From positions 4,991-36,990 of the forward strand of contig LADO01000057.1 in assembly GCA_000961595.1 (NCBI GenBank): 32,000 nucleotides of DNA, in the 5' to 3' direction. Positions 3,179 to 19,051 of this stretch are shown here, piece after piece (the first letter of the stretch is position 1; each line of letters opens with the position of its first letter). The position numbers were made by a program, and so were the translations under genes. Origin of the DNA: Peptococcaceae bacterium BRH_c4b (GTDB taxonomy: Bacteria; Bacillota; Desulfotomaculia; Desulfotomaculales; Desulfocucumaceae). The notes beneath the pieces are model-generated. The model was given only the letters and a program-made list of their open reading frames with translations, did no database searches and was not told the DNA's origin.

Positions 3179-4822
3179 ATGGAGAATTTATTTAAAGCAT
3201 TAACAAAAATAGACGTATTATCCCCGCCCAAGCAGTATATCACAAAACTTTTGGAGGCAGTCTGTCAGCAATTGGGCTATTCCTTCGGTTCGGTGATTGA
3301 ACTGGACCATAATGGCCGGGGCTGGATGTTTGCCTCGTATAACCTGCCGGAAAACTATGTGCATACGGCAAACCAGGTGGCTCCATATATGTCCAGTCCT
3401 TTTGGAGAAGCCATTAAAACGGGAGAAATTGTTGTATCATGCGATCCGCTGAGTGAAAAACGGCTGGAGCCCTGGCATGAAATCATTGGGCAAAACAATA
3501 TCAAGACCATGGTATGGGTGCCCCTGCTAAATAAAGGCAGCGCCTTCGGAACATGCAACCTTTACGACATTCGGGTCAGGCAGATTGATGAGTTGGAATG
3601 GCATACCCTGCAGCAAATAGGGGTGACCATATCAATTGCCTTGGCCAGCAACCAATACCTGAATAAATTGAATGGTAAAACCAGGGAGCTTGAGGCGGAG
3701 GTTGCCAGGCGCAAGCAGGCGGAGAAAACCACCCACGAGAGCGAAAGGTTTTTAACAAACATTTTCACCAGCATCCAGGACGGCCTCTGTGTGCTGGACA
3801 CCCAGTACAACATTATCAGGCTTAATCATACCGCGGAAAAACTTTACGCGGGGAACCGGACAGTTATAGGTAAAAAGTGCTACCAGGTGTTGCGGGGGAG
3901 AGATGCCATATGTGACGGATGCCCGGCCATCAGAACCCTGGCCGGCGGCGAATCAGACCATGAGGTGCTATCCAATAAAAATGCCGCCGGAGAAATTACA
4001 GGCTGGTCGGAAATATACAGTTTCCCTTTAATTGAATCCCTAACAGGAAAGATCAAGGGGGTAACCCTGTATATTCGCGATATTACGGAACAACGTAAAA
4101 TGGAGCAGGAAATGTCCCGCTTTGAAAGGCTAAACCTGATCGGTGAAATGGCGGCCGGGATCGGGCATGAAATAAGAAACCCCATGACAACCGTGCGCGG
4201 TTTTCTGCAATTACTGGGTGGCAAAAAAGAGTGCTCTCTGTTCAAGGACTTTTTCGGTCTGATGATTGAAGAACTGGACCGGGCAAACGCCATTATTAGC
4301 GAGTTTTTATCCCTGGCCAAAAACAGGATGACTGAATTTAGCCTGCAAAATATCAATGCTATAGTAAACTCCCTGCACCCGCTTATTGATGCAGACGCCA
4401 TGAACATGGATAAGTATGTTGAAGTGAAACTGGAGGATGTTCCCGATCTATGGCTCGATGAAAAGGAAATGCGCCAGCTCATACTAAACCTTGTGCGTAA
4501 CGGGCTGGAGGCTATGGAGGGGGAAGAGGCACTGACCATCAGGACCTTTGCAGCGGAAAATGAGGTGATGCTGGCAGTAACGGACCGGGGCAGGGGTATT
4601 AAACCAGAAGTGCTTGAAAGAATGGGCACACCTTTTTTCAGCACCAAGGATAACGGCACCGGTCTGGGGCTAGCCGTTTGTTACAGCATCGCCGCCCGGC
4701 ACAATGCCTCCATTAAAATTCAAACTGGCAGCGAGGGCACTACCTTTACAGTGCACTTCCGCCAGTGCTGCCTGCCAGGGCAGCACCCAGGGCGCCAACC
4801 AATTGGGGATTTTTCGGTATAA
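3179..4822 (+). CDS. Cytoplasmic GAF-PAS sensor histidine kinase, orphan (sporulation-kinase-type H-box)
   Basis: 547 aa with no hydrophobic segments. It has an N-terminal GAF-like region, a PAS domain ('FLTNIFTSIQDGLCVLD'), H-box 'GIGHEIRNPMTTVRGFLQLL', N-box 'LILNLVRNGLEAM', and G-boxes 'DRGRGI' and 'GTGLGLAV'. No response regulator is nearby. Confidence 0.85.
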   Translation: MENLFKALTKIDVLSPPKQYITKLLEAVCQQLGYSFGSVIELDHNGRGWMFASYNLPENYVHTANQVAPYMSSPFGEAIKTGEIVVSCDPLSEKRLEPWHEIIGQNNIKTMVWVPLLNKGSAFGTCNLYDIRVRQIDELEWHTLQQIGVTISIALASNQYLNKLNGKTRELEAEVARRKQAEKTTHESERFLTNIFTSIQDGLCVLDTQYNIIRLNHTAEKLYAGNRTVIGKKCYQVLRGRDAICDGCPAIRTLAGGESDHEVLSNKNAAGEITGWSEIYSFPLIESLTGKIKGVTLYIRDITEQRKMEQEMSRFERLNLIGEMAAGIGHEIRNPMTTVRGFLQLLGGKKECSLFKDFFGLMIEELDRANAIISEFLSLAKNRMTEFSLQNINAIVNSLHPLIDADAMNMDKYVEVKLEDVPDLWLDEKEMRQLILNLVRNGLEAMEGEEALTIRTFAAENEVMLAVTDRGRGIKPEVLERMGTPFFSTKDNGTGLGLAVCYSIAARHNASIKIQTGSEGTTFTVHFRQCCLPGQHPGRQPIGDFSV

Positions 4823-5672: not shown

Positions 5673-5990
5673 ATGTCCGGCGAGAGTGAAATAAGCGGTT
5701 CCAAGGGAGATAAGTACTGCCCTCCTGGTATGACCAGTATGCTGGCGGACAGGATTAGGGAACTTGTAGGTCAACAGGCAACGGTTTACATGTATGATAT
5801 GGTATTGACAGGCATGGTTCACTATGTGGGCATGGATTATATGGAACTGCATGTGATGTACGACAACATGATGAGAATGGTGTTGATTCCTCTTTATTCA
5901 GTGATGGCCGTTGTGCCCGGTGGGCCACTGCCGGAGGAGGAAGTTGAACCCGCCGCACCTACTTGTCCGTCCACTCCGGGTATTCTCTAA
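5673..5990 (+). CDS. Hypothetical small Met-rich protein with Pro/Glu-rich tail
   Basis: 105-aa ORF. ATG is preceded by AAGGGGG 7 nt upstream. The core 'LVGQQATVYMYDMVLTGMVHYVGMDYMELHVMYDNMMRMVLIPLYSVMAV' loosely recalls small Sm-like/DUF2642-type spore-former proteins (unverified). Confidence 0.55.
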   Translation: MSGESEISGSKGDKYCPPGMTSMLADRIRELVGQQATVYMYDMVLTGMVHYVGMDYMELHVMYDNMMRMVLIPLYSVMAVVPGGPLPEEEVEPAAPTCPSTPGIL

Positions 5991-6263: not shown

Positions 6264-6836
6264 GTGGAAATATTGTTTCTGGTGGCTGGTCTTGGCAATC
6301 CGGGGGGCAGGTATGAGCTTACCCGGCATAATGTAGGTTTCCGGGTGGTGGACAGGCTGGCAGGCCAGCTTGATACCAAGGTGACCAGGTCTATGTTCAA
6401 AGCCCTTTATGGTGAAGCCGTGGAGGGAACGCAAAAGATTATTCTGGTGAAGCCCCAGACTTACATGAACTTAAGCGGGACAACACTGTCGGCCATGATG
6501 AACTGGTATAAAATACTGCCCCGGGAATTACTGGTTATCTATGACGACATGGATCTGCCGGTGGGTAAAATCCGCATTAGAAATAAGGGCGGCCACGGGG
6601 GCCACAAAGGCATGATATCAATTATAGAACAACTGGGAACCAGCGAGTTTGCCCGCCTGCGTATAGGCATAGGCCGCCCGGAAATACCGGGCTACGATCC
6701 TGCCGGCTGGGTTCTGGGGAGATTTTCCGATGATGAAGAAAAAGCCATCAACGATGCGGTTATAAATGCCGCCGAAGCGGCAAGGCATATAATTAAAGAA
6801 GGCGCGGAAGCCGCCATGAACAAATTTAACCGGTAG
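6264..6836 (+). CDS. pth: Peptidyl-tRNA hydrolase
   Basis: 'LVAGLGNPGGRYELTRHNVGF...VKPQTYMNLSG...GHGGHKG' is the Pth signature. GTG 6264 has GAGG 5 nt upstream and gives 190 aa, the typical length. Confidence 0.9.
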   Translation: MEILFLVAGLGNPGGRYELTRHNVGFRVVDRLAGQLDTKVTRSMFKALYGEAVEGTQKIILVKPQTYMNLSGTTLSAMMNWYKILPRELLVIYDDMDLPVGKIRIRNKGGHGGHKGMISIIEQLGTSEFARLRIGIGRPEIPGYDPAGWVLGRFSDDEEKAINDAVINAAEAARHIIKEGAEAAMNKFNR

Positions 6837-6852
6837 CAATACCGGTTTTTTT
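6828..6852 (+). terminator. Terminator of pth (overlaps the stop codon)
   Basis: AACCGGT (6828-6834), loop AGCAAT, ACCGGTT (6841-6847), with the T-run extending to 6852. Confidence 0.7.
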
Positions 6853-6967
6853 GCTGTGTAAAAAAATTGTCAATAATTTATGTTTTTTCCATGTTAAATA
6901 TAGGATTTTATAGTTTTTTGTAGAAGTTATGCAAAAATAAATTTGAGGTACATATTTGAGGTATATA

Positions 6968-7429
6968 ATGTTAAAATTTATTCTTTTTCTCATGCAGTCT
7001 TTACCGGAATCGTCAGGCATGATCGCTTTCAGTCTGGCCCTGGTCAGGGTGAAGCTGCGCTGGGGAATTATACTGGCGGCGGGTTTGGTTTCAACTTTGA
7101 TAATTTACTTTATAAGGGAATTGCCTGTTGCCTTCGGGCTGCACACCGTAGTAAGTATGCTGTTGATGGCGGTTTTTATCAGCAAAGCCACAAAAGTATT
7201 GCCCTCCAGAAGCTTTGCGGCCGTTTTCGCCTGTTTTGCCCTGCTGGCGTTACTGGAGGCTATCATGTACGAAGCAACAGCCCGCTTGTTAAACAGGGAG
7301 ATCAAGGACATTATGTCGGATTATCTGCTGTGGAGAATAACAGGGCTGCCCCAGGCACTGCTAATGAACATTGCCGCTGTTTTAATGTCCAGGTATAGAA
7401 AACCCATGGAAGGTATGTGGAAAATATGA
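6968..7429 (+). CDS. 153-aa polytopic (~5 TM) membrane protein, paralog 1 of an agrB-linked family, function unknown
   Basis: It has the same length as the 7602-8063 product and matches it at 94/153 positions in an ungapped hand alignment. It ends 'RKPMEGMWKI'. ATG 6968 has GAGGT 5-6 nt upstream. An in-frame TTG 6956 is served by a duplicated copy of the same SD. Confidence 0.75.
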   Translation: MLKFILFLMQSLPESSGMIAFSLALVRVKLRWGIILAAGLVSTLIIYFIRELPVAFGLHTVVSMLLMAVFISKATKVLPSRSFAAVFACFALLALLEAIMYEATARLLNREIKDIMSDYLLWRITGLPQALLMNIAAVLMSRYRKPMEGMWKI

Positions 7430-7473
7430 TTTATTTGCATTCAGCAGGCATCTGGCCGCCCATGCCGCTTTAA
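7426..7473 (+). pseudogene. 5' remnant of a second agrB copy (16 codons, then stop)
   Basis: ATGATTTATTTGCATTCAGCAGGC (7426-) aligns with the true agrB start ATGAGTTACCTTGCGTTCAGCAGGC (8060-). Both share the same ATGA stop/start overlap with the preceding membrane-protein gene. Confidence 0.5.
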
Positions 7474-7542
7474 CGGCGTTAATATTTTCTTTTTAAAAAA
7501 ATATAGGGATGCGGTGGAAGTATATAGGGTTTTGGATGTTGT

Positions 7543-7549
7543 TGTCGAA
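7543..7549 (+). promoter_or_regulatory. Perfect Spo0A-box TGTCGAA about 55 nt upstream of the membrane-protein/agrB/agrD operon
   Basis: Exact heptamer in the 172-bp intergenic spacer. Confidence 0.35.
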
Positions 7550-7601
7550 TTGAATAATTGCCGGTCATCAGGCGCTAAAACATATATGCGAGGTAATAAC
7601 C

Positions 7602-8063
7602 ATGATAAAAATAATTTTGTTTCTACTGCAGGGTATACCGGAATCGCTGGGCTTTATTGCGTGCGGTCTGGCCCTGGCCAGGGTTAAGCTGCGCTGGGGA
7701 ATTATACTGGCTGCGGCACTTGTGTATACCTTGATCATCTATGCCATAAGGCAATTGCCGGTTACTTTCGGGCTGCACACGGCTGTGGGTATATTGCTGG
7801 TGGCGGTTTTCATCGCCAAAGCTACCAGGGTAAAACCCTCAATAAGTTTTGTCTGTGCCTTTGCAAGTTGTTCCGTCTTAGCCCTGGTGGAAGTACTTGG
7901 TTACGAAATGGCTAAAAAATTGTTGCACACGGATATAAATAATATAATATCTGACGATCTTATGTGGAGAATGGTAAGTTTTCCCCAGGCTGTATTATTG
8001 ATCATAATCGCGCTGCTCATAGCAAAATACAGAAAGCCCCTGGAAGGCATGTGGAAAATATGA
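7602..8063 (+). CDS. 153-aa polytopic (~5 TM) membrane protein, paralog 2, translationally coupled to agrB
   Basis: ATG is preceded by GAGGT 7 nt upstream. The stop TGA (8061-8063) overlaps the agrB ATG (8060-8062) as ATGA. Confidence 0.8.
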   Translation: MIKIILFLLQGIPESLGFIACGLALARVKLRWGIILAAALVYTLIIYAIRQLPVTFGLHTAVGILLVAVFIAKATRVKPSISFVCAFASCSVLALVEVLGYEMAKKLLHTDINNIISDDLMWRMVSFPQAVLLIIIALLIAKYRKPLEGMWKI

Positions 8064-8698
8064 GTTACCTTGCGTTCAGCAGGCGCTGTGCCGGTTATCT
8101 GGGCCGGAAAACAAACCTGCCGGAGGAAAAGGAGATAATTCTGGCCTATGTTATCGAGGTGCTGGCGCTTAATGCGGCCAATATTGCGCTGACGCTGCTT
8201 TTGGGGGCCGCGCTGGGGGTGTTCCCGGGAACACTGGCAGTTCTTTTGACAGTGGCGTTATTCAGGCACAGCGCCGGAGGGGCCCATTCACAGTCCCCCT
8301 GGCGGTGCGCCGCTATAACTGTTGTCACTTTTCCCGGGCTGGCATGGCTGGCGTTATATATAGTCCGGCTGGGCCAGCCTTTTATTGATATTTTTACACT
8401 GGCATCTTTACTGACCGGCTTGCTTGCTATTTTACGCCTTGCTCCGGTGGACAATCCTGCCGCGCCTATTATATCAATGCGCAGGAGAAAAAAGTTAAAA
8501 TATATAGCCATAACAACTCTGGTATTGCTGGCTGTGGTTGTATTCTTATTGCGGGAACTCGCCGGTGTAACTACCAATGACATACGGGTATGTATCAGCC
8601 TGGGCGTTTTATGGGTCGGCTTCATGCTTGGCGGCTGGGGGCACGGGTTAATGTCACTCATCGACAGCATTAAAATAGTAAACCGGAGGGAGGTGTAA
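8060..8698 (+). CDS. agrB: AgrB-family AgrD-processing membrane endopeptidase
   Basis: 212 aa. 'LFRHSAGGAHSQSPWRCAAIT' places His76 and Cys83 7 residues apart, as in the catalytic H77/C84 of S. aureus AgrB. 'APVDNPAAPIISMRRRKKLKYIAI' matches the conserved AgrB loop. The ORF-track start at 7964 lies inside the upstream gene. Confidence 0.85.
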   Translation: MSYLAFSRRCAGYLGRKTNLPEEKEIILAYVIEVLALNAANIALTLLLGAALGVFPGTLAVLLTVALFRHSAGGAHSQSPWRCAAITVVTFPGLAWLALYIVRLGQPFIDIFTLASLLTGLLAILRLAPVDNPAAPIISMRRRKKLKYIAITTLVLLAVVVFLLRELAGVTTNDIRVCISLGVLWVGFMLGGWGHGLMSLIDSIKIVNRREV

Positions 8699-8702
8699 AC
8701 TA

Positions 8703-8834
8703 ATGAAAAGATTAGTCGGCAAATTGTTTGTTTTTGCTGTGACGACCCTGCTTTTGCTGGCCAGCGTTGTTGCCGCGTCCGCCTGTACTATTACGGCTTA
8801 CCAGCCCGAGGTGCCCGCATCGCTGAGAAAATAG
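8703..8834 (+). CDS. agrD: AgrD-type autoinducing-peptide precursor (43 aa), absent from the ORF track
   Basis: MKRLVGKLFVFAVTTLLLLASVVAASACTITAYQPEVPASLRK. The SD GGAGGGAGGTG ends 7 nt before the ATG, and the gene starts 4 nt after the agrB stop. It has a hydrophobic leader, Cys28 plus 4 residues (CTITA), then a 'YQPEVPASLRK' tail like clostridial AgrD tails. Confidence 0.8.
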   Translation: MKRLVGKLFVFAVTTLLLLASVVAASACTITAYQPEVPASLRK

Positions 8835-8905
8835 TAAATTAAAGGGTATAAGGCTGCCAGCCGCCTTGCCTTGCATAATATATGACAGTTAATCGCCACG
8901 GCATT

Positions 8906-8943
8906 TATACATAAGAGGCGGTTTTAACTGCCTCTTATGTATA
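8906..8943. other. Perfect 14-bp inverted repeat between agrD and the kinase gene (terminator without U-tract, or operator)
   Basis: TATACATAAGAGGC (8906-8919), 10-nt loop, GCCTCTTATGTATA (8930-8943). Confidence 0.4.
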
Positions 8944-8968
8944 ATAAGGATTAAAAGGGGTGACGTAG

Positions 8969-10606
8969 TTGACGCCGGGAAGTGAAAGGCAAAGGGAAAC
9001 AGAGCTTCATGAGTACCTGACAACTACGCACATGCTTTGTTTGCTGATTATGGTATCGGCTTTTATTTTGAGCAAAAAATTTATTTCCGGTAAAATATAC
9101 CCGGTCATAAATGTCCGCTTTTTTGCTCTGGCCGGTTTGTTCTGTGCAGGCGTGATTTTGATGTTCAGAATAAAAAACCATTTCCTTGCGGGCAATAAAG
9201 AAATCGTTACCTTGGCCAAATTAGCCTATCTGGCCTTTCCACTCTTTGTATCCTCCGCCACATTAATGATTATTGATGACAGCCGCTATCATTCCGAAAT
9301 TCTACTATTGCTGCCGGTGCTGGTAACGGCCTCCGTCATGGGAAAAAAAGCCGGCCTGGCCATGGCCACCGTATGTTCGGCATCAGTAGTGTTTTACCAG
9401 ACCGTAATAATGGGAAAACAATTCTTTCCCGCTCTGGAATACAACTTCCTGCTGATCTGCCTGATTTATGTCGTGGGCTGGTTCGTGGGCGGCCTGACGG
9501 ATATTGAGGCCCAGCACCGGCAGCATTTAAACGAAAGTTTGCTTTCTCTGAAAAATGAAATCAATACCCGCCGGAGGGCGGAGGAACAACTGCGCATACA
9601 GTCCTGCGCCGTGGAGCAAAGCCCCGGCATGGTGATTATAGCTGACACCTCCGGCAGAATAGAATATGTCAATAACAGCTTTTCCCTGCTCACCGGCTAT
9701 GCTTCCGGTGAGGTAGAGGGAAAATACCTGGTTGATTATAACGGGCAGGCTTCCGGAGATTTTTTGCAGATATGGAAGGACATTGAAGCGGGTAAGGAGT
9801 GGAAAGGGGAGATTAGTAGCCAAAAAAAGACCGGCGACAGTTACTGGGAAAACGCCACTTTTTTCCCCTTGCGGGATACCGACGGCACCGTAACACATTT
9901 TTTAAAATTTGCCGAGGACATCTCCGAGCGCAAACAAATGGAGAGGGACATGGCCAAGCTGGACCGTATGAATCTGGTGGGGGAAATGGCTGCCAGCATC
10001 GGTCACGAGATAAGGAACCCGATGACCACCGTGCGGGGCTTTTTGCAAATGCTCGGGGGAAAAGAAGAGTGCAGGCATTATAAGGAATATTACGATCTGA
10101 TGATCCAGGAGTTGGACCGGGCCAATGCTATCATTACAGAGTACCTTTCGCTGGCCAAAAACAAGCCGGTAGATTATCAGCTACACAACCTTAATACCAT
10201 CGTAAAAACATTGTATCCTCTGCTCTCGGCGGATGCCATCAATTCCGATATGTATGTGGAACTGGAAACTGAACCCATACCAGATTTTACGGTAGATGAA
10301 AAGGAAATACGCCAGCTTATATTAAATCTCGTGCGGAACGGTCTGGAGTCCATGCAGCCCGGTGGTAAATTAATCATAAGCATCTTTCCTGAAGGGGATG
10401 ATGTGGTTTTGTCGGTCCGGGACCAGGGCCATGGCATCAGCCCGGACATTCTGGATAAAATAGGGACTCCTTTTTTTACCACCAAGGAAAAAGGAACGGG
10501 TCTTGGCCTGGCAATGTGCTACAGCATTGCGTCCAGGCATAACGCCACAGTAAAGGTGGAAACCGGGACGGAGGGAACGTTGTTTACAATTTTATTCAAA
10601 GTTTAA
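8969..10606 (+). CDS. Membrane-bound PAS sensor histidine kinase, orphan (sporulation-kinase-type H-box)
   Basis: 545 aa with about 6 hydrophobic segments in the first ~190 aa. It has a PAS domain ('AVEQSPGMVIIADTSGRIEYVN'), H-box 'SIGHEIRNPMTTVRGFLQML', 'LILNLVRNGLESM', 'DQGHGI' and 'GTGLGLAM'. TTG 8969 is preceded by AAGGGGTG at 6-nt spacing. The C-terminal ~240 aa are closely paralogous to the 3179-4822 product. Confidence 0.85.
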   Translation: MTPGSERQRETELHEYLTTTHMLCLLIMVSAFILSKKFISGKIYPVINVRFFALAGLFCAGVILMFRIKNHFLAGNKEIVTLAKLAYLAFPLFVSSATLMIIDDSRYHSEILLLLPVLVTASVMGKKAGLAMATVCSASVVFYQTVIMGKQFFPALEYNFLLICLIYVVGWFVGGLTDIEAQHRQHLNESLLSLKNEINTRRRAEEQLRIQSCAVEQSPGMVIIADTSGRIEYVNNSFSLLTGYASGEVEGKYLVDYNGQASGDFLQIWKDIEAGKEWKGEISSQKKTGDSYWENATFFPLRDTDGTVTHFLKFAEDISERKQMERDMAKLDRMNLVGEMAASIGHEIRNPMTTVRGFLQMLGGKEECRHYKEYYDLMIQELDRANAIITEYLSLAKNKPVDYQLHNLNTIVKTLYPLLSADAINSDMYVELETEPIPDFTVDEKEIRQLILNLVRNGLESMQPGGKLIISIFPEGDDVVLSVRDQGHGISPDILDKIGTPFFTTKEKGTGLGLAMCYSIASRHNATVKVETGTEGTLFTILFKV

Positions 10607-10856
10607 TCATGATCGCCGAAAAAGGTGTCAATTATTTTTTCGGCAACTCTTTTCCGGGCGTTGGACTGGGCCACCAGCATTAAAACCACCAGAAACAACT
10701 CCGCAATATCCCTCTTTTCACTGGATACCTGTTCTGTCTTCTCCCTGCTCAAATCAAACTTCTCCATCAGCGTAAGCCTGGAAGAAAAACGTTAAAGGAC
10801 TAAAACAGCCTTTTTCTGTCAAGTATATAAGCAAATACTTCCGGGAGGCTGCCGGA

Positions 10857-11261
10857 ATGCAATACAATTTCATACCGGCAGCATTGGCGGCTGCGGGACT
10901 TTCCTGGCTGACTAACGGATTTATACTGCGGCTCGGACGCGGCGGGCTGGTATACCTGGCACCGGCGGCAGAGGAAGTTGCCAAAACGGGCCTTGCTCTG
11001 GCTGTGGGTGCTTCGGTGCCGGCAACTCATATATTTTTTGGTTTATTGGAAGCCCTGTGGGACGGGGCAGGAAAAAAGGATGTTCCCGCAGGGGCCATTG
11101 CTTTACTGAGCCATACAGTATTTGGTTTGATTACCTTTTTTGTACTGCATGCTACCGGGGCCGTGTGGCCGGCCCTGACTTTTGCTTATCTTGCCCATGT
11201 AGGATGGAATACCCTGGTGTTGCATCTGACCGGCAGAAAAAAGGGGGGTGCGGGGAGATAA
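10857..11261 (+). CDS. Small (134 aa, ~4 TM) CPBP/PrsW-superfamily-like membrane protein (putative glutamic-type intramembrane protease)
   Basis: ATG is preceded by GGAGG 8 nt upstream. The motifs 'AEEVAK' (EExxK as in PrsW, EExxxR in CPBP), 'LSHTVFG' and 'AHVGWN' (HxxxN) occur in the family order. Assignment is by motif only. Confidence 0.55.
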   Translation: MQYNFIPAALAAAGLSWLTNGFILRLGRGGLVYLAPAAEEVAKTGLALAVGASVPATHIFFGLLEALWDGAGKKDVPAGAIALLSHTVFGLITFFVLHATGAVWPALTFAYLAHVGWNTLVLHLTGRKKGGAGR

Positions 11262-18966: not shown

Positions 18967-19051
18967 GAATTATTTTCAAGTAAGGAGGAAATTCAAGAAA
19001 TAACGCGAATAATTAAGTGCATTAATACGTAAATTTTGAGGGGGGTATTTA

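Follow-up and report, generated by a model that had tools for sequence, protein, structure and literature searches.

We examined a 32,000-nucleotide stretch of Peptococcaceae bacterium BRH_c4b (GenBank assembly GCA_000961595.1, contig LADO01000057.1, positions 4,991 to 36,990 of the forward strand), hereafter the window, in which a first-pass annotation had read a 43-codon open reading frame (ORF) at 8703-8834 as an unannotated agrD gene, encoding the precursor of a CTITA thiolactone autoinducer. The ORF belongs to a cassette located between pth and mfd and ordered X1 - X2 - agrB - agrD - hairpin - sensor kinase, all features of which are described here on the forward strand. X1 (6968-7429) and X2 (7602-8063) are paralogous membrane-protein genes, agrB (8060-8698) encodes the membrane cysteine peptidase that cyclises AgrD, and agrD (8703-8834) encodes the 43-aa autoinducing-peptide precursor; a stem-loop (8905-8944) and the gene of an orphan sensor histidine kinase (8969-10606), a candidate pheromone receptor, complete the cassette.

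The agrD gene and its predicted peptide

The agrB stop codon (TAA, 8696-8698) is followed by the spacer 'acta' (8699-8702) and by the agrD ATG at 8703, and the 43 codons are translated as MKRLVGKLFVFAVTTLLLLASVVAASACTITAYQPEVPASLRK; the coordinates, the translation and the distance of 4 nt from the agrB stop given by the first-pass annotation were all reproduced. The strong Shine-Dalgarno sequence that it had recognised is likewise present, as GGAGGGAGGTG (8685-8695, within the 3' end of agrB), whose GGAGGTG core ends 7 nt before the ATG and which has a counterpart in front of agrD in every orthologue. ORF length is uninformative, with 79 ORFs of at least 30 aa in the same 9 kb, and the significance of agrD therefore derives from a family-model match, from its place directly behind a Pfam-positive AgrB and from conservation, rather than from its 43 codons. 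The 43-aa product is called as a gene by public gene callers, the identical peptide occurs on at least 24 public contigs (the sources shown being a rock-porewater metagenome and a JGI metagenome), and the orthologue in Pelotomaculum isophthalicicum JI carries the NCBI name 'cyclic lactone autoinducer peptide'. The 'unannotated' status of agrD is at most a naming gap.

A search with AgrD hidden Markov models (HMMs), suggested at first pass, gave a match to NCBIfam TIGR04223 (AgrD family cyclic lactone autoinducer peptide) over residues 7-43, at 36.5 bits (cut-off 19; E-value 3.9e-9). The staphylococcus-centred Pfam family PF05931 was also considered as the family of this peptide and was set aside in favour of TIGR04223, its match being sub-threshold. 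A protein search for AgrD relatives returned five. The gene directly upstream is a clear agrB (Pfam PF04647, 136.9 bits), starting with the ATG at 8060 implied by the interval 8060-8834 that had been proposed for co-expression, and this ATG overlaps the stop codon of X2 (ATGA). AgrB residues R69, G74, H76 and C83 are invariant in seven AgrB orthologues, with a spacing identical to that of R70, G75, H77 and C84 of Staphylococcus aureus AgrB, which are needed for peptidase activity (PMC10196373). The AgrB active site is intact.

AgrD conservation was compared over 13 loci, and codon positions were counted over seven 43-codon orthologues; the arrangement of a short ORF directly downstream of agrB on the same strand is shared by the 12 other loci. 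Cys28 is invariant throughout and is followed by exactly four hypervariable residues (TITA, TISA, SISS, IWCS, VWGG, AMSH, AFTH, LISH, LISA, TLLF, AMLF, VFAH and GWLL), then by a near-invariant YQPxxPxxL tail, while the leader is conserved in the form MK+...LLLLA..AA. The numbers of variable columns at codon positions 1, 2 and 3 in the seven orthologues are 26, 16 and 40 of 43, and C28, Y33, Q34, P35, P38, L41, R42 and K43 are invariant despite synonymous change. The frame carries a clear coding signature and, because third codon positions vary at 40 of the 43 codons, is under purifying selection. The first-pass annotation had made its reading depend on conservation of the cysteine and of the QPEVP tail in orthologous loci, of which the former is indeed invariant and the latter kept as YQPxxPxxL. 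A curated HMM, synteny with a catalytically intact AgrB and a classical conservation pattern all support its AgrD and CTITA-ring reading, and on this evidence ORF 8703-8834 is a genuine AgrD-type precursor, a new member of a known family.

The codons Cys28-Thr-Ile-Thr-Ala32 (8784-8798) are predicted to specify a five-residue thiolactone ring. Variable residues give way to invariant ones at A32|Y33, and S. aureus AgrD1 likewise has its cysteine at position 28 and is cleaved between residues 32 and 33 (PMC10196373). In Clostridium perfringens the ring is CLWFT (PMC6534674), with a His after it (CLWFTH; PMC7300355) and with TSA preceding the Cys (PMC2688746), so that the likeness drawn at first pass was found to hold as far as it could be checked. 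Because the 32|33 boundary, the S. aureus AgrD1 cut and the matching C. perfringens layout (SA-CTITA-Y here) coincide, a five-residue CTITA thiolactone is the best prediction, and the ORF probably yields it. AgrB would cut the precursor between Ala32 and Tyr33 and link the Ala32 carbonyl to the Cys28 thiol, forming the CTITA ring. The hydrophobic leader would be removed afterwards. Cleavage at the conserved A-S-A|C site, which would suit signal peptidase I, would leave CTITA without a tail, as in C. perfringens; a product that keeps one to three residues N-terminal to the ring is just as likely. The exact cleavage sites are presumptive; the calculated [M+H]+ values of the predicted cyclic peptides are 490.233 for CTITA, 561.270 for ACTITA and 648.302 for SACTITA.

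Two features of the precursor had been described somewhat differently at first pass. The leader, given there as hydrophobic or amphipathic, is indeed hydrophobic, but its basic n-region, its hydrophobic core and its c-region of small residues up to the Cys resemble a Sec-type signal peptide (A-S-A|C site) rather than an amphipathic helix. The tail, given as charged, is conserved but is not acidic: directly past the ring, Y33 and Q34 are invariant in place of D33 and E34, the AgrD residues essential for cleavage by S. aureus AgrB (PMC10196373).

The probable X2-agrB-agrD transcription unit

A sigma-H-like promoter motif, AGGG-N17-GAAT, was matched at 7526-7550, where it would serve X2-agrB-agrD, and another, AGGA-N17-GAAG, at 6902-6926 upstream of X1; the SigH promoter consists of a -35 AGGA and a -10 GAAT separated by 17-18 nt (PMC12456013). 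Upstream of X genes, 18 segments of 71 nt contain 14 AGGA-N17/18-GAAT motifs (8 of them strict), where 0.46 (relaxed) and 0.095 (strict) hits are expected from the background of the same loci, and these motifs are placed 53-82 nt upstream of the X starts. The heptamer TGTCGAA at 7543-7549, inside the X2 motif, also matches the Spo0A box, and X genes of four lineages have it 43-62 nt upstream. We did not retain it as a Spo0A box: it aligns as the -10 part of AGGA-N17-GAAT, and a sigma-H-type promoter is the more economical explanation, although the heptamer may play a dual role as -10 element and Spo0A box. Region 7500-7600 is 98% identical in two related loci (L010 and L001 in our numbering of compared loci), against 71-94% for its flanks.

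A terminator-like hairpin follows X1 (7462-7479), and a perfect 18-bp stem-loop follows agrD (8905-8944), with an intergenic z-score of -2.9, no U tract and a 3' arm containing TATAAT; it could be an operon end, an attenuator or a stabiliser. A hairpin or terminator is found after agrD in 11 of 12 loci, several having U tracts and the look of a typical terminator (equivalents in L001, L002, L003, L005, L007, L008, L010, L013, L015 and L016). Given the promoter motif upstream and the hairpin behind agrD, X2, agrB and agrD probably form one transcription unit, the sensor gene being transcribed separately or by read-through.

X1 and X2 are 153-aa membrane proteins with five predicted helices, 61% identical to each other, the start of X1 being that of public gene calls. 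Neither has a Pfam or NCBIfam match; the AlphaFold2 model of X2 (pLDDT 90.6) matched no PDB entry by Foldseek at E <= 0.001, and a sequence profile of the family run against PDB sequences gave no relative. The X-family profile matched 651 clusters (50%-identity representatives) at E <= 1e-3 and 246 at E <= 1e-10; all members with a source name are called 'hypothetical protein', and none of them has a Pfam domain. In an alignment of 66 sequences E97 is invariant, and P13, E14, R50, G57, H59 and L93 are at least 90% conserved. X adjoins agrB in every intact locus examined, with one to three X copies per cassette, and this strict coupling suggests a part in pheromone maturation or export.

Two candidate affiliations of X were tried. 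Kinship with AgrB or with the kinase's membrane part was rejected, the hhalign probability being 0.1% in each case. The idea of a CPBP/Rce1-like intramembrane protease, an analogue of MroQ, is speculative: X had no Pfam, Foldseek PDB or PDB-profile match, and its conserved residues are out of order for the CPBP motifs EExxxR, FxxxH and HxxxN. Separately, a 134-aa membrane ORF between the kinase gene and mfd (10857-11261, forward strand) has a sub-threshold Rce1/CPBP-like Pfam match (E = 0.031) with EEvaK and HvgwN motifs; it is kept in L010 (dN/dS 0.27), disrupted in L001 and absent from other cassettes. By analogy, it might be a counterpart of MroQ, the AgrD leader protease of S. aureus.

The cassette and its sensor kinase

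The locus is not a canonical agrBDCA operon but a distinct conserved cassette, which the first-pass annotation did not mention. The agrBD locus contains no AgrC (HPK10), the adjoining kinase combining PAS, HisKA and HATPase_c domains, and neither the scan of window ORFs of 100 aa or longer nor that of the related cassettes gave a response regulator or an AgrA LytTR protein. The order X - agrB - agrD - sensor recurs in unrelated genome contexts across several orders: the cassette is present in Desulfoscipio gibsoniae, Desulfocucumis palustris, Desulfotomaculum arcticum, Desulfallas thermosapovorans and several metagenome-assembled genomes (MAGs) and, far more distantly, in a Thermosediminibacterales MAG, Desulfitobacterium sp. 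AusDCA, Candidatus Formimonas warabiya and a Dethiobacter MAG. Judged by this distribution, the cassette is mobile as well as conserved. No intact cassette lacks a sensor gene behind agrD, and this holds for at least eight unrelated contexts. We found no description of this cassette variant in the literature; a search combining agrD and Desulfotomaculum returned only a review that does not connect them, and other searches gave only work on staphylococcal and clostridial agr.

A degenerate cassette was read by eye in Pelotomaculum isophthalicicum JI (L002, 5900-6180), where agrB is deleted and X is reduced to its last codons (…WKI and the stop). The agrD gene (ring CIWCS) and its Shine-Dalgarno sequence are intact there despite the loss of agrB, and the public call of the kinase gene starts at 6701, omitting a membrane region encoded from ~6177.

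The window kinase (545 aa), recognised by Pfam matches and hydropathy, has about six transmembrane helices within residues 1-180, a PAS domain (215-320; PAS_9 match over residues 221-320, E = 3.3e-17) N-terminal to HisKA (His346), and HATPase_c (443-544). It is an orphan, with no two-component partner gene nearby, as are its equivalents in L003, L005, L007, L008, L010 and L018. All cassette kinases share the orphan state, a PAS domain and the H-box HEIRNPMTT[VI][RK]GFLQ. Their six DHp specificity residues, read at H+7, 8, 11, 12, 14 and 15, are TTGFQM in the window, L010 and L001, TTGFQL in L003, L007 and L018, TTGFQI in L005 and L008, and TTGFQF in L015. This presumed mapping reproduces the KinA string when applied to a KinA sequence. 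Davidson et al. (2018) gave TAGFQL for Bacillus subtilis KinA and TTGFQM, TTGFQL and TTGFQF for the six orphan PAS kinases of Desulfotomaculum acetoxidans (PMC6136694, Table 1); Dtox_1918 (TTGFQL) was shown to phosphorylate Spo0F, feeding Spo0F, Spo0B and then Spo0A, and 'orphan plus PAS' was proposed as the signature of Spo0 kinases (PMC6136694). By the criteria of that study, the agr-linked kinase is a predicted phosphorelay kinase; a Spo0F gene is absent from the window. The kinase has in common with the Spo0 kinases (B. subtilis KinA-E; Dtox_1918 and its paralogues) the orphan state, the PAS domain and the H-box HEIRNPxT, the specificity string being TTGFQM/L/I in the cassettes versus TAGFQL in KinA and TTGFQL/M in the Dtox kinases (PMC6136694). 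The window also carries spoVT, spoIIE, yabQ and a spoIID-like gene, and the host thus has a spore-former genotype. To our knowledge, neither an N-terminal six-helix membrane domain nor linkage to agrBD has been described for Spo0 kinases.

A second orphan histidine kinase of the window (3179-4822, forward strand) is apparently cytoplasmic, with GAF, PAS, HisKA and HATPase_c domains. Its specificity residues are TTGFQL, the same as in Dtox_1918, and it is probably a sporulation-phosphorelay kinase.

In three distant cassettes (L013, 5357-7048; L016, 5211-6860; L017, 5296-6999), the place after agrD is taken instead by the gene of a membrane protein that carries GGDEF and HD-GYP domains. In the L013 protein, the membrane region at the N-terminus is homologous to that of the window kinase (hhalign probability 97.2%, E = 3.7e-11, 175 columns); it also weakly resembles DUF4118 and 6TM_PilS. 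Retention of the six-helix module beside agrBD, with exchange of its output domain, is the pattern that a pheromone receptor would be expected to show. The distant cassettes suggest that Agr-type peptides are coupled to cyclic di-GMP (c-di-GMP) signalling in those organisms.

Comparison of window region 6600-10900 with the close strains L010 and L001 revealed a mosaic divergence: nucleotide identity to L010 is ~99% for X2 and agrB, ~88% for X1 and ~92% for agrD and the kinase gene, and mfd is 98-99% identical. The dN/dS ratios between close strains are 0.17-0.55 (agrD, kinase), and dS, too, is raised where the sequences diverge, which points to recombinational exchange of alleles. Positive selection alone on agrD or on the kinase gene was rejected on the same values, recombination fitting better.

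We consider it about 80% probable that agrD is real, that its product is matured to CTITA via AgrB, that X2, agrB and agrD form an operon and that the adjacent six-helix kinase is the likely sensor, feeding the Spo0 relay. A sigma-H-type promoter would drive X2-agrB-agrD, with agrD as last gene and the hairpin closing the operon; AgrB, possibly with X, would make the CTITA thiolactone. Once secreted, the peptide would most likely act on the kinase through its six-helix membrane domain, and the kinase in turn would feed the Spo0F-Spo0B-Spo0A relay. The identity and conservation of agrD, the AgrB active site, the cassette layout, the homology of the sensor modules, the class of the specificity residues and the enrichment of the promoter motif are observed directly; we infer the receptor assignment, the Spo0F target, the use of sigma-H and the role of X.

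Several observations weigh against this model. The staphylococcal AgrD model PF05931 scores the peptide at 14.0 bits, below its threshold of 22.7, and details of processing may differ from those known, because the tail is without the acidic D33/E34 and the leader is signal-peptide-like. The sigma-H assignment is one of motif resemblance, and the motif was not found within 120 nt upstream in L018, L013 and L017_X0. The TTGFQx string marks a class rather than a proven partner, since it is common among orphan kinases of Peptococcaceae. Finally, the receptor assignment follows from gene linkage and domain swapping, which is linkage, not proof: the L015 sensor has a different N-terminal architecture, and the C. 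perfringens receptor VirS is encoded away from agrBD (PMC7300355).

These last points would also fit the most probable of the competing readings, in which AgrD and AgrB are real, the peptide is sensed by a kinase encoded elsewhere and the adjacent PAS kinase answers another cue. Systems of agrBD without a linked receptor are known from C. perfringens and Clostridioides difficile Agr1 (PMC7300355, PMC11210211), a hairpin lies between agrD and the kinase gene, and a PAS domain suggests an intracellular cue. We nevertheless regard a remote receptor as unlikely, given the sensor gene behind agrD in every intact cassette, the retention of the six-helix module under exchanged output domains, and the raised divergence between close strains that agrD shares with the kinase gene and not with agrB.

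As is proposed for the cassette, the Phr-Rap system of B. subtilis feeds the Spo0 phosphorelay from secreted peptide genes driven by sigma-H. Phr signals are linear peptides that are imported and act by inhibiting Rap phosphatases, whereas the peptide here would be a cyclic AgrD product whose presumed target is a membrane kinase. With the S. aureus agrBDCA system, the locus shares the R/G/H/C spacing of AgrB, Cys28, ring residues that are hypervariable between alleles and, by prediction, cleavage after residue 32 (PMC10196373); in contrast, it has no HPK10 AgrC, no LytTR AgrA and no RNAIII but a HisKA/PAS kinase, its AgrD tail and leader differ as described, and it has the additional X, coupled translationally to agrB. 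The Agr-like system of C. perfringens is closer in precursor layout (...SA-C-x4-[H/Y]-Q-P...), in its five-residue thiolactone, predicted or shown and probably tailless, of the kind predicted here, and in having no AgrC or AgrA in the locus. It differs in its ring, CLWFT versus CTITA, and in its proposed receptor, VirS being encoded elsewhere whereas a sensor gene directly follows agrD here. In C. perfringens, agrBD is co-transcribed with two upstream hypothetical-protein genes, CPE1563 and CPE1562 (PMC2706048, PMC6534674, PMC7300355); no C. perfringens protein is among the X-family matches listed. The C. difficile Agr1 locus consists of agrB1D1 only, and the peptide of this orphan agrBD favours sporulation at an early stage (PMC11210211, PMC8534292); no route from AgrD1 to Spo0A is known there and no kinase is linked, whereas a candidate kinase adjoins agrD here.

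The AgrD peptide alone adds one predicted pheromone, CTITA, to a well-known family, and its context outweighs it, the route from Agr peptides to Spo0A being unresolved in clostridia. Pheromone genes linked physically and evolutionarily to an orphan PAS kinase with a Spo0F-type signature offer a testable pair, a thiolactone and one kinase. The cassette also draws attention to two uncharacterised parts, namely the X family and a six-helix sensor module reused with c-di-GMP outputs. More speculatively, and with the odds rather against it, the cassettes could represent a distinct modular branch of Agr systems (Desulfotomaculia, Desulfitobacteriia, Dethiobacteria and Thermosediminibacterales), in which AgrB and AgrD need X and are wired to a dedicated six-helix peptide-sensing module fused to a Spo0F-directed kinase or to c-di-GMP enzymes; here, sigma-H-type promoters would drive the genes of a thiolactone pheromone that activates a sporulation kinase directly. 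In such a branch X, with its conserved Glu/Arg/His/Glu, might act as leader peptidase, exporter or AgrB partner, and the window would hold a direct quorum-to-Spo0A route of the kind still sought in clostridia.

Other readings of the precursor

A real AgrD could release a mature signal other than CTITA, for example after a cut behind Tyr33, giving a six-residue ring, or with an N-terminal tail, as in (A)SACTITA. Sequence does not tell where the N-terminal cut falls, the residues ahead of the Cys (AAS-A/T) show fair conservation, the tail is without the acidic residues that S. aureus AgrB uses, and a cyclic derivative of the eight-residue TSACLWFT was once proposed for C. perfringens (PMC2688746). 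We judge such a signal improbable: the variability boundary lies exactly at 32|33, and Tyr33, invariant in 13 of 13 loci, acts like a residue of the recognition tail. Counted from the Cys, moreover, the second Pro lies at C+10, presumably as in S. aureus AgrD1. In C. perfringens, it is the tailless five-residue ring that is considered the likely natural signal (PMC7300355).

Far less probable still is a small Sec-exported lipoprotein or linear secreted peptide, with Cys28 lipidated or free and no thiolactone. This reading arises because the leader ends in A-S-A|C, with the n-, core and c-regions described above, and the L013 orthologue weakly matches Pfam LPAM_1 (E = 0.25), the sole such match. 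Compared with the lipobox pattern [LVI][ASTVI][GAS]-Cys, however, the window has A-S-A-C and orthologues have A-S-T-C and S-T-T-C, and the Thr at -1 in the latter (AASTC, ASTTC) speaks against a lipobox. The gene is always directly behind agrB, the peptide passes the AgrD model, and a lipoprotein would leave the hypervariability of the four residues after the Cys unexplained.

That ORF 8703-8834 is an untranslated chance frame, as the abundance of short ORFs in the region might suggest, is effectively refuted by the comparative data, namely the TIGR04223 E-value, the recurrence of the product on public contigs, its conservation across families with third-position variation, and the conserved Shine-Dalgarno sequence.

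Two minor observations concern other parts of the window. Further strict AGGA-N17/18-GAAT matches occur on the forward strand at 18986, 23011, 27928 and 30985, one lying ~350 nt upstream of an FtsL/DivIC-like gene (23359) and one ~95 nt upstream of tilS (28023). Just upstream of pth, a 105-aa ORF without a Pfam match (5673-5990, forward strand) is conserved in L001, and the gene calls for L010, L011 and L012 include it.

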